Source: Dehalococcoidia bacterium | GTDB taxonomy: Bacteria > Chloroflexota > Dehalococcoidia > Lucifugimonadales > GCA-2712585 | Direction: 5' to 3' | Assembly (NCBI GenBank): GCA_965238215.1 | Contig: OZ250180.1 | Span: 1,765,524 to 1,829,523 of the forward strand | Length of the DNA stretch: 64,000 nt | Shown: one piece after another, positions 17,849 through 59,360 of the stretch | Position numbering within the stretch: position 1 is the first letter of the stretch | How the letters are laid out: each line of letters opens with the position of its first letter | The notes under the pieces: generated by a model | What the model was told of the DNA's origin: nothing | Seen by the model: the letters and a program-made list of their open reading frames with translations, nothing else | Database searches by the model: none | Program-made: the position numbers and the translations under genes

Positions 17849-18451
17849 GTGGCAATCGTTAGAAATGCTGTAGACAGGTCGAAGTTCAACCCATCCGCCC
17901 ATCTCCCCTACAACCTTCGCATCATGGATTTCGAGTCAACAATGCAGGATGTCTACGATTTCTTCTACGACGTGAACTCTCATCTGGTTGAAAGAGGTCT
18001 TGAACGCCTCGATGACATGCTTAGGCCGGCCATCATGTCCGGCGTTTTATCCGACATGATATCTGCAAGTCTGGCAAAGCATTCCCGTGTTCTTACGGAG
18101 AACAATTACTTCAACGGTCATCCGGACCTTGTTGTGCAAGGTCGATACGCTGGCAATTCCGCAAAAGCCGGCGCCCACGGAGGGGAAATAAAGACGACCA
18201 GGAAGCGTGGCGGCGCAGTGGACACCCACGGAGCACGGGAGCAATGGATGTGCGCATTCGTCTACACCGTAGACAACCAAACTGAGCCTGCTATTGAAAG
18301 AAAACCCATGACCTTCACGGAGGTTTACTTGGGGCACGTAACCGAAGATGACTTCCGGCGTAATCCTCGAGGCGAACTTGGCACTCGCACCGCTACGTTA
18401 GACCGACACGGCATTCGCAAGCTTAGGGAGCAATGGGTCTACCTAGCGTGA
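17849..18451 (+). CDS. type II restriction endonuclease (PD-(D/E)XK fold)
   Basis: GHPDLVV-x19-GEIKTT fits the PD...ExK motif. Convergent with, and 1 nt from, a DNA methyltransferase. Lower-GC islet. Specificity unknown. Confidence 0.65.
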   Translation: MAIVRNAVDRSKFNPSAHLPYNLRIMDFESTMQDVYDFFYDVNSHLVERGLERLDDMLRPAIMSGVLSDMISASLAKHSRVLTENNYFNGHPDLVVQGRYAGNSAKAGAHGGEIKTTRKRGGAVDTHGAREQWMCAFVYTVDNQTEPAIERKPMTFTEVYLGHVTEDDFRRNPRGELGTRTATLDRHGIRKLREQWVYLA

Positions 18452-18452
18452 G

Positions 18453-19607
18453 CTAATTGCGGCGATTTACTTCAAGCTCCGATAAGGGCTGAATGGCCTT
18501 GGTCGCCATGTCAAAGTAGTCCGGGTCCTTCTCAATCCCAATCGAATGATACCCGATGGCTTCAGCGGCTGCTAAAGTGGAGCCTGCGCCGGCAAAGGTA
18601 TCTACTATCACTCCTTCTCCCAGTGGGAGCGCACCTCTAACCAACTTCCGCATTAACTCTTGAGGCTTTAGGCTTGGATGGGGTGCGATGAGTTTCTCTT
18701 TCTTGCGTGTTGGGGTTGATCTAATTACGTCTCCGAATGGGTACTCATCCGACGGCCTCCGGAATCCCCCCGTCTTCCACCTCCTCAGATTATCCTGAAC
18801 CCGCCCATCCAACGGCTTGCGGAACATCACCCACGGCTCCCACATAGACCTTGGCATCACCGTCACGTTTCGGAATTCCTTCTCCGCCGCCTTGGGCCTG
18901 TCACCGCCGCGCATCGTCATTACTAGCCGTATTATGTCTCCCCTTCGCTCCAAACCGGCAGACGAAAGAGCGTCTGAAAGTATGTGGCTAAGCAACGGAT
19001 TCGAAGCCACTATCACATTTGCTCCAGGCGTCAATTTTGGAAGCAACATCGAGGCCCATACGAGGAAAAACTCTCGTAAATGTTCCTTTTGCGAAGGTGT
19101 CAGCGTGGTGAACCGGGGAAGCGGCGACCGCCTATGGCCGTCGAACGATGGCGGGATTCTCCAAACCCCACCCCTGCCATTTCTCAATTTACGCTGTTCT
19201 TTTTGCGTGTATTCGTACAGTCCGTAAGGAGGATCCGTAACGACGGCGTGAATGGAATTATCCTCTTGCCTATCCAGCCAGCTAAAGCAATCGTCGTGTA
19301 TTATTGTTGCATTCCCAAATCGAAAGGGAGGCTTCTGCTGAAATTCCGATGAGAGAAACTGTTCTTGTCTAATCGTTCCGAATTGCGAGGCTCTTATGCG
19401 GTATACGCCTCTAGCCTCCTTCACGAACAAATCCGGCGTGTTCAACCTCAAATATGAACGAATTGACGATTCGGGAGTGGGGCCGTTGACCTTAGAAACT
19501 CGCTGATATATGTGCTTGGCGGTTAGCCCTTCGGGTGCTACGCGTAGCACCTGAAGAATGGCATCGCGGACTTGACCCGGAGCGTTTCTCTTTCCATCTT
19601 CCGCCAT
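18453..19607 (-). CDS. beta-class DNA methyltransferase (N6A/N4C) with N-terminal winged-helix (HARE-HTH-like) domain
   Basis: Motif IV VVTDPPYG precedes motif I VDTFAGAGST (beta order). The N-terminal ~85 aa (LTAKHIYQRV...TPESSIRSYLRLNTPDLFVKEARGVYRI) look like a wHTH. Confidence 0.9.
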   Translation of the reverse strand: MAEDGKRNAPGQVRDAILQVLRVAPEGLTAKHIYQRVSKVNGPTPESSIRSYLRLNTPDLFVKEARGVYRIRASQFGTIRQEQFLSSEFQQKPPFRFGNATIIHDDCFSWLDRQEDNSIHAVVTDPPYGLYEYTQKEQRKLRNGRGGVWRIPPSFDGHRRSPLPRFTTLTPSQKEHLREFFLVWASMLLPKLTPGANVIVASNPLLSHILSDALSSAGLERRGDIIRLVMTMRGGDRPKAAEKEFRNVTVMPRSMWEPWVMFRKPLDGRVQDNLRRWKTGGFRRPSDEYPFGDVIRSTPTRKKEKLIAPHPSLKPQELMRKLVRGALPLGEGVIVDTFAGAGSTLAAAEAIGYHSIGIEKDPDYFDMATKAIQPLSELEVNRRN

Positions 19608-46634: not shown

Positions 46635-47177
46635 CTAGAACTCTCCCGAAATGAAGCTGACGGCGATCTCCCGCCGCGCTTTCTCGTCGAAGCCCACACC
46701 GTCGGCAATCCTCAACCCAGTGTACACCATAACGTAGGTGCTGAAGTGCTCCTCCCGCACCTCCGCAGAGTCGGGAAAAATTGGCATGTAGCTGCCCACC
46801 GTGTCCAGCAGGTCCCGACGCAGAGCGGCGGTCCGCTTGGGCGAAAGAAGCCGCTCGTGCTCCTCGAATTCTCCGTTTCCGACGATAACGCTCTCCTGCC
46901 GCTCCAGGGCTACCCGCACGTTGGCGGTGAGAACCAACGACCCGCCGGACTGCTTGATATCCAATTCCAGCCGCCGCCGGTCCACGGGAACATAGTTGGC
47001 CAGAAGTAGGATGATGTGATTCCGTAAATCCAGCAGGGCGTCGGCGGTCATGGTAGTCCTGTCCTGCAGCATGACGGCCTTCAACCTATTGTGGGCATCC
47101 TGCCTGCTTGCCTTCCTCTTCTCGAAGACTTGCTTGACCATGACGCCCACGTTGTCCAGGGCCTTGGGCCGCTTCAT
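46635..47177 (-). CDS. minE: MinE with an extra ~88-aa C-terminal domain
   Basis: VKQVFEKRKASRQDAHNRLKAVMLQDR...LLDLRNHIILLLANYVPVDRRRLELDIKQSGGSLVLTANVRV aligns with full-length MinE. The ORF continues another ~88 aa. The ORF opens at 47336 (65-nt overlap with minD); ATG 47177 was preferred. Confidence 0.7.
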   Translation of the reverse strand: MKRPKALDNVGVMVKQVFEKRKASRQDAHNRLKAVMLQDRTTMTADALLDLRNHIILLLANYVPVDRRRLELDIKQSGGSLVLTANVRVALERQESVIVGNGEFEEHERLLSPKRTAALRRDLLDTVGSYMPIFPDSAEVREEHFSTYVMVYTGLRIADGVGFDEKARREIAVSFISGEF

Positions 47178-47271
47178 CTTCTCACGCAGTTCGGCTATGG
47201 AGGGAGCTTTCTTGGCTATCTCCTTCAGGCCGTCGACGGCGGGCGGCTTCTTGACCAGGTCTTTTAGGGCT

Positions 47272-48090
47272 TCAAACCTTGGCGCCCACTGGTCTCTTGA
47301 ACCCCACCATCCTTTTGATCCACGTGAAGATGCCATAGCTTACCTCCAGCTTTAGCATGGGAACGTCCTCTCCTTCTATCCGGGCCGCCACACGGCGGAA
47401 GGCCTCTCCGGCGCTGGAGCGACTGTCATGTACTGCGGGCACACCCCGGTTGCCTGAAACCACTATCTGTTCGTCTTCCGGTATGATGCCTAGGAGAGGA
47501 ACGGAGAGGAGGTCCAGAATGTCTTCGGTAGTCATCATGTCGCCGCGGCGTACCATGCCGGGGCGCACTCGGTTGATAATCAGTTCGGGCTTCGTAAGGC
47601 CGGCGGCCTCGATGAACCCGATTACACGGTCGGCGTCGCGGATGGCCGCCACGTCCGGCGTGGTGACTACGATGGCCCTGTCCGCGGCGACCATGGCGTT
47701 CCTGAATCCCTGCTCGATGCCGGCGGGGGAGTCGATAAAAATGTAGTCGAAATCTTCCTTCAGCTTGTCGCAGAGTTCCTTCACCTGCTCGCCCGTTACC
47801 GCATTTTTGTCCCGGGTTTGGGCAGCGGGAATCACGTATAGATTCTCTGTCAGCTTGTCTCTAATCATCGCTTGTTGGGTTTGGCATACGCCCTCTATGA
47901 CCTGCACCAGGTCGTAGATTATGCGATTCTCCAAGCCCATTATGACGTCCAGGTTTCTCAGGCCGATGTCTGCGTCGATGAGAACAACCCTCTTGCCCCG
48001 GAGGGATAGGGCCGAACCCACGTTGGCTGTGGCCGTGGTCTTGCCCACACCGCCCTTGCCTGAGTTTACAACGTATACCTGACCTTGCAT
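47272..48090 (-). CDS. minD: septum site-determining ATPase MinD
   Basis: Deviant Walker A GKGGVGKTT and a C-terminal amphipathic helix. Confidence 0.95.
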   Translation of the reverse strand: MQGQVYVVNSGKGGVGKTTATANVGSALSLRGKRVVLIDADIGLRNLDVIMGLENRIIYDLVQVIEGVCQTQQAMIRDKLTENLYVIPAAQTRDKNAVTGEQVKELCDKLKEDFDYIFIDSPAGIEQGFRNAMVAADRAIVVTTPDVAAIRDADRVIGFIEAAGLTKPELIINRVRPGMVRRGDMMTTEDILDLLSVPLLGIIPEDEQIVVSGNRGVPAVHDSRSSAGEAFRRVAARIEGEDVPMLKLEVSYGIFTWIKRMVGFKRPVGAKV

Positions 48091-53091: not shown

Positions 53092-53457
53092 TTAAGTGGT
53101 CGCTCCCAACAGCCCCTCAACCATGTCCACAAACTCCTCGACTTCTCGGAGCCGGTCGTTGACAAAATCCACGGAATAGCCGTTCTCATAAAAGTTCACG
53201 TGCAAGAGGTTAGCTCCACTGAATAGGGACCCCAACTTTGGGTCAGAGGTCTCGCGGTACAACCTGTCGACACCGCGGTGTAAGGCATAGTGGCTGTTGT
53301 GTTCCCATCCCCGGTTCTCCGCAATGGCCTTGACCATTTGGGCCGCTGCACCCCAGCCCTTTTCGGAAGCCTGGGCCAAGTCGTCCTTCGCGAGCTCTTC
53401 ATACGCCTGAGCCAGAAACACCCGGCTCTGCTCTCTGTATGTGGTAGTTCGTTGCAC
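53092..53457 (-). CDS. PaREP1/HEPN-like helical protein, copy A
   Basis: YREQSRVFLAQAYEEL...ASEKGWGAAAQMVKAIA..RGWEHNSH...LHVNFYEN pattern. GTG start. Confidence 0.6.
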   Translation of the reverse strand: MQRTTTYREQSRVFLAQAYEELAKDDLAQASEKGWGAAAQMVKAIAENRGWEHNSHYALHRGVDRLYRETSDPKLGSLFSGANLLHVNFYENGYSVDFVNDRLREVEEFVDMVEGLLGATT

Positions 53458-54766: not shown

Positions 54767-55669
54767 ATAAAAATTACCGAAATTCTGAAGAGGAAGCGTA
54801 CCCTCTCTTTCGAGTTCTACCCACCCAGGACCCGGACGGGTATTCCAGCCGTCTTTCGGGCCATCAATCGGCTCGCCGTCTTCAACCCGGACTTCATCTC
54901 CGTCACCTACGGCGCGGGCGGTGTAACCCAGACCTTCACCGAGGAGATAGTCACCGGAGTCAAGGAAAATACCGACCTGCTGCCGATGGCCCATCTCACC
55001 TGCGTCGGCCAGACCAAAGATGAGATTCACGGCGTGCTCACTCGCCTGGAGCAGGCCGGCATAGAAAACGTCATCGCCCTCCGAGGAGACCCGCCTCGGG
55101 GCCACTCGAACTTTGTCCCAGCTAAGGGAGGATTCAGCCACGCAACAGACCTCATCCGCCACGTAAGCCAGAACTTCTCCTTTGACGTCGCCGCCGCCTG
55201 CTACCCCGAGGGACACCTGGAGTCACCGAGCCTGGAACGGGACTTGGAGTACACCAGGCTGAAGTTGGAAACGGGGGCTAGCTTTCTGATAACCCAGCTT
55301 TTCTTCGACAACGAGTTTCTCTATTCATTCATGGATAGGGCCAGAAGAGCAGGCATCAATGCGCCGGTTCTGGCTGGCATTCTGCCCATCCTGAACACCC
55401 AGCAGATCCGCCGGTTTACCGCCCTATGCGGCTCCACCATCCCGCGGGAAATTAACATAAAGCTGGACCGTCTGGCCGACGACAAAGACGCGGTGCGCGA
55501 ATTGGGCATCGAGATAGCCACGGAGCAGGTGCGGGAGCTTCTGAGTTGGGGCGTTGACGGCATACACTTCTACGCCCTTAACCGTAGTTACTCCATATCC
55601 AGGATTCTCACCAACCTGGGCTTCCCCCAGACTTCCCTGCCGCCCGACAAGGCGACAGAGGGCGTGTAG
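54767..55669 (+). CDS. metF: methylenetetrahydrofolate reductase, apparent ATA start
   Basis: The frame is open from 54722. (I)KITEILKRKRTLSFEFYPPRT...SVTYGAGG...LRGDPP matches the MetF N-terminus. No ATG/GTG/TTG occurs before residue 74. GGAGG (54756-54760) lies 6 nt before ATA 54767. Confidence 0.85.
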   Translation: MKITEILKRKRTLSFEFYPPRTRTGIPAVFRAINRLAVFNPDFISVTYGAGGVTQTFTEEIVTGVKENTDLLPMAHLTCVGQTKDEIHGVLTRLEQAGIENVIALRGDPPRGHSNFVPAKGGFSHATDLIRHVSQNFSFDVAAACYPEGHLESPSLERDLEYTRLKLETGASFLITQLFFDNEFLYSFMDRARRAGINAPVLAGILPILNTQQIRRFTALCGSTIPREINIKLDRLADDKDAVRELGIEIATEQVRELLSWGVDGIHFYALNRSYSISRILTNLGFPQTSLPPDKATEGV

Positions 55670-56952: not shown

Positions 56953-57522
56953 CTAGGTTTGCGGCGTTGGGTTCAGCCCCAAACGAGGAGCCACCGGCTT
57001 TAGGCTCTCAATGACGAAGGCGATGTGTTCGTTCAGGTCCAACTCCATCTCCGCGGCGCCGTTGATGATGTCCTCCCTGATCACGTCCTTGGCGAACCGC
57101 TTGTCCTTGAACTTCTTGCGGACGCTGCGAGGTTTCAGGTCACCTAAGCTCTTGCCCGGCCGCACAAGGGCAACGGCTCGGATGAACCCCGATAGCTCGT
57201 CCACCGCAAAGAGGGTCTTCTCCATAAGGCTGTCTCGAGTGAGTCCCGTATGGTCGCCGTGGGTCAGAACTGCCCGCACGATGTGCTCCGGGAATCCCGC
57301 TTCCCGCAGCAGGCCCGCGCCGAACATTGGGTGCTCCTCCGGCGTTGGGCAGATCTCCCAGTCAAAGTCGTGCACCAGCCCGGCAATCCCCCACTCCTCC
57401 TCGTTCTCGCCGTACTTGCGGGCATAGCCCCGCATGGCCGCCTCCACCCCTAGGAGGTGTCGCATCAGCACGTCGGTCTTCACGTGGAGCTCCAAAAACT
57501 TGAGGGTGCTCTCTCTATTCAT
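56953..57522 (-). CDS. HD-domain phosphohydrolase
   Basis: H...HD (GLVHDFDWE) ...H..D pattern. 189 aa. Confidence 0.8.
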   Translation of the reverse strand: MNRESTLKFLELHVKTDVLMRHLLGVEAAMRGYARKYGENEEEWGIAGLVHDFDWEICPTPEEHPMFGAGLLREAGFPEHIVRAVLTHGDHTGLTRDSLMEKTLFAVDELSGFIRAVALVRPGKSLGDLKPRSVRKKFKDKRFAKDVIREDIINGAAEMELDLNEHIAFVIESLKPVAPRLGLNPTPQT

Positions 57523-58393
57523 CGTTTTCCCTCCCTTTCTCAGAGGATTGGATTGACGAAGCCACGGGCCGCGGCTCGCACTTTCGAGCGGTCGTGATGA
57601 ATCCGGTGTGCGCCACCATCCGATGGTCCGGCCTCATGCTCTTCTCCGACACGTGCCACGAACGTAGCATAAGCTCCACCGTCTCCACCAACTGGAAAGC
57701 CCCGTGGTTCTGAAGCGCCCCATTCAGCCGGTGCACCTGGAGTGTCGTCGGCAGGAAGCTCAGGAAAATGCCCCCCGGCGCCAGCGATTCGGCGGCGCTG
57801 TCAACCACCCTCCACGGCTCCGGCAGGTCCAACGTCAGCCGGTCCACCTCCCGTTCCTCGATGCCCTCGTAGATGTCCGCCTCCCTAACGTTGAAGGCCG
57901 ATCCTCGGGGCAGAAGGGGACGAATCCTTTGCATCGACTTCTCCGCCTGTCCCGGGCGGATTTCGTAGGATGTGACGCTGCCCTCCGGTCCCACGGCGCG
58001 CAGCAACGCCATGGTCAGCGCCCCTGATCCAAAGCCTCCCTCCACCACCCGCGCTCCCGGGAATATGTCGCCCAACATCAGTATAGCCCCCACGTCCTTG
58101 GGGTAGATGACCTGGGTCGCCCGCTTCATCTCCAGGATGTAGTCGGCAAGGGTGGGCTTCAAAGCGAGAAACCGATGGCCGCTGTTGGTCTGGAACCACT
58201 CCCCCGGCTGCTGGCCGATGATGGCCCGGTGCTCCAGGTAGCCCATGTGGGTATGGAAGGTGCCTTCCTCCCGGAGGTGCAGCAAATAGCGCCGCCTCTT
58301 ACGGTCGATGAGAAGGGCAAGCCCTCCGTCCCGGAAGGGCCCGCGGGGGTCGTCTCCCTCCAGGGGCGCGGCCATGGACGCCTCAGTCATCAC
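57515..58393 (-). CDS. trmI: tRNA (adenine-N1)-methyltransferase (TrmI/GCD14 family)
   Basis: QVIYPKD and VVEGGFGSGALT SAM motif. Confidence 0.85.
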   Translation of the reverse strand: MMTEASMAAPLEGDDPRGPFRDGGLALLIDRKRRRYLLHLREEGTFHTHMGYLEHRAIIGQQPGEWFQTNSGHRFLALKPTLADYILEMKRATQVIYPKDVGAILMLGDIFPGARVVEGGFGSGALTMALLRAVGPEGSVTSYEIRPGQAEKSMQRIRPLLPRGSAFNVREADIYEGIEEREVDRLTLDLPEPWRVVDSAAESLAPGGIFLSFLPTTLQVHRLNGALQNHGAFQLVETVELMLRSWHVSEKSMRPDHRMVAHTGFITTARKCEPRPVASSIQSSEKGRENDE

Positions 58394-58411
58394 ACACTCC
58401 GGCGTGACCCT

Positions 58412-58879
58412 TTAACTCCCCAATTTGTCCAACTCCCCCAGGATCTCATCCGGTGTGGGCAGGGAACCCGGGGCGTACTCTCGGCGGAACTTCACCGTAC
58501 CGCCCTTGTCTACGATAATTATCGCCCGTCGGGGCGTCCCGATGGCGTCGTTGAATAGACCGTAGTCCCTGGACATCTGACCGTGGGGGTGGAAGTCCGC
58601 CAGCAGGGGGTACTGAACGTCCCCCATGGATTCCGACCATGCACGATGGGAATGTTGACTGTCGCAGCTGACGCCCAACACCTGGGCGTCTCTCTCCTCA
58701 AACTGGGCGTTAGCCCCGTTGAATGAGGAGACTTGGTTCCCTCAACCGCCTGTGAAGTCGAAGACGTGAAAGGAGAGGACTACGTCCTTCTGTCCTCTGA
58801 ACTGGCTGAGCGACACCTGGTTGCCCGACTGGTCGGGCAGGGTGAAGTCTGGCGCTGATTGTCCGATTTCGGCTGTCAT
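58412..58879 (-). CDS. AhpE/BCP-like peroxiredoxin with in-frame UGA (probable selenocysteine) at the peroxidatic position
   Basis: Two same-frame ORFs (58742..58945, 58412..58681) are separated only by TGA 58744-58742. The joined product is a full Prx with FDFTGG[U]GNQV. A SECIS-like hairpin lies downstream. Confidence 0.8.
58694..58730 (-). promoter_or_regulatory. SECIS-like mRNA hairpin
   Basis: It starts 11 nt after the UGA. CUCCUCA/UGAGGAG lower stem, UUC bulge, AAC/GUU, G.A mismatch, GGGC/GCCC, UAAC loop. Confidence 0.6.
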
Positions 58880-58979
58880 AGTTTTGTGAAATCCTCCTGT
58901 CGATGTGGGGCGACGATGCTCCGTCGCCAAGGGTTGGCGTGGCATTGGGCTTCTGGATCGTGCCCGCGGGTTAGGCCGG

Positions 58980-59360
58980 CTACTTCCGGTACGCTTCCGG
59001 GGGTTCCCCCTCCACGTACGTTGTATTCTGCATGCCGTCGCTGACGGGGAAGAAGGCCAGCGTCACGGCGGTCCCTTCGCCGGAGGCGGTGAATCCGTGG
59101 GCAACGCCCTTAGGTATCACCATGGTTTGGTTGGCCAAGACGGTGGCCTTGTCTTCGCCGATGCGCCCTTCCACCTGGCCCTCCAGCACGGTAATTAGCT
59201 CGTCCACCTCGTGGATGTGCAACGGTGCGCCGGCCCCGGGCTCGATGGTGCTGTAATGGAGGGTGCAGTCCACACCCTGATCCATGCCAGCCACCGACCA
59301 CACCCGGTAGTTGGGCCTCCACGGTATCTCTTGGGCTTCCTGGTGATCAACTATGGACAT
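58980..59360 (-). CDS. cupin-domain protein
   Basis: G.PLHIHEVDE...G...I.....IPKGV.HGF cupin motifs. Last gene of the gcv transcription unit. Confidence 0.75.
   Translation of the reverse strand: MSIVDHQEAQEIPWRPNYRVWSVAGMDQGVDCTLHYSTIEPGAGAPLHIHEVDELITVLEGQVEGRIGEDKATVLANQTMVIPKGVAHGFTASGEGTAVTLAFFPVSDGMQNTTYVEGEPPEAYRK

Follow-up and report, generated by a model that had tools for sequence, protein, structure and literature searches.

An AhpE-like peroxiredoxin gene with UGA at the peroxidatic position, a probable selenoprotein gene split in annotation, in Dehalococcoidia

The minus strand at 58879..58412 of the window (the whole 64-kb stretch of Dehalococcoidia DNA that was analysed) harbors one peroxiredoxin gene, AhpE-like by sequence comparison, in which an in-frame TGA occupies the codon of the peroxidatic cysteine. 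The gene is considered to be functional and its peroxidatic residue to be selenocysteine (Sec), within the motif VxxxTxxU, with a probability of about 0.92. It is very probably a further member of the known Sec-peroxiredoxin family, mis-annotated in the databases. The first-pass annotation had suggested a probable selenoprotein split by the ORF caller, and this suggestion is now supported by the cysteine found in the TGA column of homologues, the recurrence of TGA among relatives and a hairpin that is linked to the TGA forms.

A single reading frame and its active site

The region 58879..58412 forms one frame of 155 codons, with a sole in-frame TGA at 58744-58742. The features of the gene are as follows.

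58412..58879, minus strand: peroxiredoxin gene, AhpE-like, AhpC/TSA family, with U as codon 46 (PF00578, E 1.7e-35)
58893..58898, minus strand: AGGAGG, Shine-Dalgarno-like, 13 nt 5' of the ATG, with a putative function in initiation
58877..58879, minus strand: start codon ATG; homologues start at the same place, with M-[TSP]-A-E-[IV]-G
58742..58744, minus strand: UGA as codon 46, the peroxidatic one, predicted to encode Sec; placed by alignment with Cys homologues
58414-58412, minus strand: the gene's own stop, TAA, read from the sequence

The two listed ORFs, 58742..58945 and 58412..58681 on the minus strand, share this frame, and the TGA is the only stop between them, in agreement with the earlier reading, whose read-through sequence was reproduced exactly. 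Translated from ATG 58879, the read-through product matched Pfam AhpC-TSA over residues 5-131 (122.1 bits against a gathering cut-off of 26, at the E-value given above), which corresponds to a complete peroxiredoxin, and it also matched Redoxin. On the evidence of the alignment, the true start is ATG 58879 rather than the ATG further upstream that opens the listed ORF, since all relatives begin there and the AGGAGG element lies 5' of it.

Gene callers divide the locus in two, with 45 and 89 residues. This division would be genuine if the UGA were a real stop followed by re-initiation at GTG 58681, with the hairpin found downstream of the UGA serving mRNA stability or translational coupling; the presence of the GTG 20 codons downstream and the two ORFs called by annotators agree with such an arrangement. 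However, the protein sequence encoded by codons 47-66, the stretch separating the TGA from the GTG, is conserved, and these codons are stop-free in all loci and specify the active-site helix. The thioredoxin fold would be incomplete in either fragment, since the Pfam match extends over residues 5-131, and the break falls precisely on the column of the catalytic Cys. A genuine split gene is implausible and is given hardly any weight.

The residues discussed below in relation to catalysis are encoded at the following positions.

58765-58763, minus strand: Val39 codon, at the canonical Pro position (motif VxxxTxxU)
58751..58753, minus strand: Thr43 codon of the TxxU motif (T43-G-G-U46), Thr in 106 of the 106 Sec forms listed
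58664..58666, minus strand: Cys72 codon (LGVSCDS), the only cysteine of the protein, present in many relatives but not in all
58526..58528, minus strand: Arg118 codon, the peroxiredoxin active-site arginine, from an invariant alignment column

Among sequences of solved structures, the seven best matches in the PDB were all AhpE, six of them from M. tuberculosis (Rv2238c/MT2298), with E-values from 1.9e-28 to 2.5e-26, and the next group, from E 2.8e-20, consisted of 2-Cys peroxiredoxins. The term AhpE-like, which the first-pass annotation had already applied, is therefore accurate as far as sequence relationships go, the closest similarity being to AhpE and not to the Prx1/AhpC, BCP/PrxQ, Tpx, Prx5, or Prx6 groups. 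The nearest solved structure is that of M. tuberculosis AhpE (Rv2238c; PDB 1XXU, 1XVW, 4X0X, and 5C04), the alignment covering residues 4-140 with a single gap. The two proteins have in common a length of ∼153 residues, the FTGxC/U context and the conserved Arg. As FHVFDFTGG[U]GNQ aligned over FHPLAFTGICQGE, the TGA corresponds to the peroxidatic Cys45 of the mycobacterial enzyme. The same column was occupied by an invariant Cys in all 50 of the 50 full-length Cys homologues aligned, which bears out the earlier placement of the TGA at the catalytic Cys, and Arg118 was invariant among the aligned relatives as well as in these 50 homologues.

The M. tuberculosis enzyme combines Cys45 with the proline of the PxxxTxxC motif, whereas the present product would combine Sec with Val. 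The conserved Pro of the PxxxTxxC(U) motif, at least 90% conserved in the 50 Cys homologues, is absent here and Val39 takes its place, which counts against the Sec-peroxiredoxin reading. Among the matches listed, 28 of the 106 Sec forms had V, I, L, or A in place of this Pro, vs. 1 of the 63 Cys forms. The Pro-replaced cases group in Chloroflexota, and phylogeny may account for the pattern; owing to this clustering, we do not claim a causal link between the Pro change and Sec. A second difference concerns Cys72, as M. tuberculosis AhpE has Val where the present product has this residue. Cys72 is located in the strand after the active-site helix; many Dehalococcoidia Sec forms have it, and others carry ISTD, MSVD, or LSAD at this place. 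Cys72 is a possible candidate for a resolving residue.

Distribution of TGA and Cys codons among relatives

A scan of one genome per species yielded 80 loci, in which the codon concerned was TGA in 48 and TGC or TGT in 32, the latter mostly from Actinobacteria. Metagenome contigs and individually fetched loci were added later, giving 169 related loci in all among those listed: 106 with TGA, 63 with TGC/TGT, and 0 with TAA/TAG. Thus, the relatives listed carried no sense codon other than Cys at this position. Relatives from the metagenome scan were distant, with identities of ≤51% among the matches listed. The TGA forms were distributed over Dehalococcoidia and other Chloroflexota, Deltaproteobacteria, Beta- and Gammaproteobacteria, Acidobacteriota, Planctomycetota, and Bacillota, and the alignment of all sequences was gap-free from the TGA/Cys codon to the conserved QVLG.

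The closest genome match was a Dehalococcoidia MAG (L001), with a protein 95% identical and DNA ∼91.5% identical over syntenic blocks. Between the two genes, the 45 codons before the TGA contained eight changed codons (5 synonymous and 3 non-synonymous), and the 89 codons after codon 66 contained 22 (18 synonymous and 4 non-synonymous). These counts show both halves of the gene to be, by all appearance, under purifying selection. The 20 hairpin-bearing codons contained only one change, situated within the loop.

These observations bear on the view that the locus is a pseudogene, or that a sequencing or assembly error created a TGA inactivating an ordinary Cys-peroxiredoxin. The splitting of the locus into 45 and 89 residues by gene callers would fit such a view, as would the lack of visible Sec machinery in the window. 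Against this, the same codon is TGA in 106 independent loci listed from several phyla, with frames otherwise open and never with TAA or TAG; purifying selection appears to act on both halves; and the hairpin described below goes with the TGA. With TGA recurring at one and the same codon in so many otherwise open frames, inactivation or error is for practical purposes excluded and retains a negligible probability.

The hairpin downstream of the UGA

A SECIS-like hairpin was found within the coding sequence, directly past the UGA, composed of the following elements.

58693..58731, minus strand: SECIS-like hairpin, beginning about 10-11 nt past the UGA; recognized by its stability, the contrast of Sec and Cys forms, and a stem kept in the clade
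58731-58724 / 58700-58693, minus strand: lower stem, in which CUCCUCA (58730-58724) pairs with UGAGGAG (58700-58694)
58720-58718 / 58703-58701, minus strand: AAC/GUU stem, from the minimum-free-energy fold
58716-58713 / 58708-58705, minus strand: GGGC/GCCC stem, from the minimum-free-energy fold
58712-58709, minus strand: apical loop UAAC, 29 nt from the UGA

The coordinates and stems proposed in the first-pass annotation proved correct, as this hairpin is identical to the minimum-free-energy structure predicted by ViennaRNA (-28.6 kcal/mol, z -2.4 relative to dinucleotide shuffles). RNA structure could be told apart from coding constraint by resampling synonymous codons for the 18 residues of the hairpin according to the codon usage of the window. 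Of 3000 such recodings, 1.8% folded as stably as the real hairpin (z -2.3), which thus surpassed 98% of them.

The segment from +11 to +56 was compared between Sec and Cys loci, dereplicated from the matches listed. The TGA loci (n = 78) showed a mean z of -2.50, with 65% below -2, vs. a mean z of +0.25 with 5% below -2 in the Cys loci (n = 40; Mann-Whitney p 1.5e-13). A matched case within one phylum is useful because the Sec and Cys groups differ in taxonomy: in Acidobacteriota, the Sec forms L024, L038, L048, and L072 had z-values of -3 to -4, whereas a similar Cys form, L059, had a z-value of +0.6. It is the TGA forms, and not the Cys forms, that characteristically have a hairpin following the codon.

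Conservation of the lower stem was evident at close range. In the clade of the window (15 sequences), RNAalifold recovered the lower stem 14-21:45-52, and pair 21:45 was A-U in four sequences and G-C in seven, the changes being at synonymous third positions of Ser and Phe codons. Across all 49 first-round sequences, RNAalifold gave no single in-register consensus structure, which counts against the Sec reading; it is attributed to the register of the hairpin varying among subfamilies. Bacterial SECIS elements usually vary in register and sequence. When the structure of the window was imposed on the same 49 sequences, 54.6% of cells were paired vs. 49.2% in shuffled ones, a modest excess that was likewise counted against, and 83 cells were changed on both sides vs. 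50 expected.

The formal consensus for bacterial SECIS (bSECIS) elements specifies an apical loop of 3-9 nt with G as its first or second nucleotide, an upper stem of 4-16 bp, a distance of 16-37 nt from UGA to loop, and a free energy of ≤ -7.5 kcal/mol, and a subset of bSECIS elements departs from this model (PMC13188914). [quoted passage not shown] The earlier statement that spacing and size are as expected for a bacterial SECIS thus stands for spacing, loop size, stem, and energy, and falls short in the loop G. No alternative fold with at least four contiguous pairs and the loop G was found in the window, L001, L002, or L167-L169, and the nearest relatives share a GGC-YAAY-GCC apex, likewise devoid of loop G. 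As implemented here, the bSECIS criteria accepted 75% of Sec forms and 78% of Cys forms. Since the model does not separate Sec from Cys loci, it was not used as positive evidence, and it is here neither strong support nor strong refutation. The window searched against Rfam at gathering thresholds yielded one tRNA-Gln only; around the hairpin, matches at E up to 10 were at chance level. The hairpin shares its placement, inside the coding sequence and directly following the UGA, with the E. coli fdhF-type SECIS and the bSECISearch model, but it has no sequence similarity to the fdhF-type element.

If the established bacterial pathway applies, the hairpin at 58731-58693 would act as a bacterial SECIS and recruit SelB-GTP-Sec-tRNA(Sec), and the ribosome would place Sec at UGA46 without terminating. 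The resulting enzyme of 155 residues would reduce hydroperoxides through a selenolate/selenenic-acid cycle assisted by Thr43 and Arg118, and it may be re-reduced by an external thiol partner in the manner of AhpE or through Cys72.

A more far-reaching proposal, which we regard as tentative and rather unlikely, is that the Dehalococcoidia branch represents a functionally distinct variant with a non-canonical SECIS class, a Pro-less active site, and a gained Cys72. If it were true, the GGC-YAAY-GCC apex without loop G would imply a different SelB-RNA recognition, the loss of Pro, seen almost only in Sec forms, could possibly result from selenium relaxing the need for a Pro-shaped pocket, and Cys72 could serve as a selenenylsulfide partner.

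Decoding of UGA, database records and genomic context

TGA is also in use as an ordinary stop in this genome, terminating 12 of the 44 Pfam-supported genes in the window, and a genome-wide reassignment of TGA is thereby excluded. The genes selA, selB, and selD and a tRNA-Sec were not found within the 64-kb window, which is counted against the Sec reading; the only tRNA seen there is the tRNA-Gln. Pfam annotation of 50 ORFs of the window revealed housekeeping functions, such as the glycine cleavage system, TrmI, cupin, GAPDH, PFK, MinDE, and hydantoinases, and two scans of the window for other split or UGA-containing genes gave no further credible selenoprotein candidate. A motif scan of all fetched loci located selA in a Dehalococcoidia relative with a 2.34-Mb chromosome and a Sec-peroxiredoxin gene (L007), at L007:17754-19106, 8 kb downstream of the latter (TIGR00474, 550 bits vs. 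a cut-off of 268). Close SelA homologues were numerous in assemblies of Dehalococcoidia, Chloroflexota, and SAR202. Dehalococcoidia MAGs with 46-49 selenoproteins are reported in the BSepDB paper (PMC13326102).

Two classes of database records were encountered among homologues. In the first protein search, the close homologues were proteins of 87-104 residues covering only the C-terminal 55-66% of the query, and the DNA of this shortened class showed a separately called AhpC-TSA piece of 45 residues ending just upstream. The second class comprised proteins of full length whose catalytic column is occupied by Trp (P0001-P0012). In the DNA of two of these, the Trp codon is an in-frame stop TGA (L081:395-397 and L082:150-152), and the genes fail to give the database product under code 11. 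For these reasons, the Trp is an artefact of gene calling with TGA as Trp. Such calling arose on short contigs.

These Trp residues are the main argument for supposing that the UGA is read as a standard amino acid, either by reassignment (Trp or Gly) or by selenium-independent read-through (near-cognate or Cys); in addition, Sec at UGA46 is a residue that we infer. Opposed to this are the origin of the Trp residues in TGA codons, from which code 11 does not yield the database product, and the termination of 12 of 44 well-supported genes of the window by TGA. A peroxidatic Trp or Gly would, moreover, be expected to abolish catalysis, Cys being invariant in homologues, and a hairpin tied to the TGA is the hallmark of recoding that depends on SelB. 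Decoding as a standard amino acid is considered very improbable, and Sec is retained as the preferred reading.

The PrxU model NF040737 gave 63.8 bits on the gene product vs. a cut-off of 270, and no NCBIfam model reached its cut-off on it. PrxU of Eubacterium acidaminophilum, which this model represents, likewise has Sec at the peroxidatic position, but the present product is not a PrxU equivalog, as its match is confined to part of the 233-position model. PrxU is a longer, Prx1/AhpC-type enzyme. Pipelines accordingly leave the gene split, there being neither PrxU equivalence nor an NCBIfam model at cut-off. Hundreds of records would be mended by a model built specifically for the AhpE-like TxxU branch.

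Sec-peroxiredoxins with TxxU are abundant bacterial selenoproteins, also in metagenomes of marine and other origin; they have textbook standing, established for two decades, and for this reason the scientific gain from one more member is small. The family is an accepted one, with experimental verification in E. acidaminophilum (PMC13188914, PMC1794560, PMC1088965), the biochemical work being cited in PMC13188914. The Sargasso Sea set contained 43 Sec-peroxiredoxin genes (PMC1088965), a survey of 2006 listed 12 genes and inferred that Cys had changed to Sec five times (PMC1794560), and one of 2016 listed 91 genes in 78 organisms (PMC5029168). The gene in the window resembles the TxxU family of the Zhang/Gladyshev surveys in the AhpC/TSA fold, in the predicted Sec for the peroxidatic Cys, and in the hairpin directly after the UGA. 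It differs in belonging to an AhpE-like branch in Dehalococcoidia, with Val for the canonical Pro and a loop without the consensus G. The practical gain is in annotation, as databases hold the gene as fragments, one of 45 and one of 87-103 residues, or with a spurious catalytic Trp. The locus also marks this Dehalococcoidia genome as a candidate selenium user. The set of 106 Sec vs. 63 Cys loci among the matches listed provides clean natural data for SECIS evolution inside a coding region, and it also serves the study of the Pro-to-Val change accompanying Sec.

The gene is flanked by two neighbours on the same strand.

58980..59360, minus strand: cupin-domain protein, upstream neighbour, from Pfam and synteny
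57515..58393, minus strand: TrmI/GCD14-type tRNA methyltransferase, downstream neighbour, starting 18 nt past the peroxiredoxin stop

The order cupin, Sec-peroxiredoxin, TrmI (57515-59360) was kept in several relatives (L165, L167, L168, L169, and L170), and the short distance between the peroxiredoxin stop and the TrmI start suggests co-transcription.

Some minor observations were made elsewhere in the window. At 17849-19607, an ORF without family match and an N6/N4 DNA methylase gene had a G+C content of 0.52-0.53 and a GC3 of 0.56-0.58, the GC3 of their neighbours being clearly higher (0.74-0.81); these genes may be horizontally acquired. An ORF of 121 residues at 53092-53457 matched the 'archaeal PaREP1/PaREP8' family (E 3.7e-21), an unusual match for a bacterial genome. 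The MTHFR ORF at 54986-55669 matched profile positions 74-287 only, and its real start is therefore probably upstream. Conversely, the 233-residue MinE-domain ORF at 46635-47336 matched at residues 77-142 only, and its listed start is probably too early.
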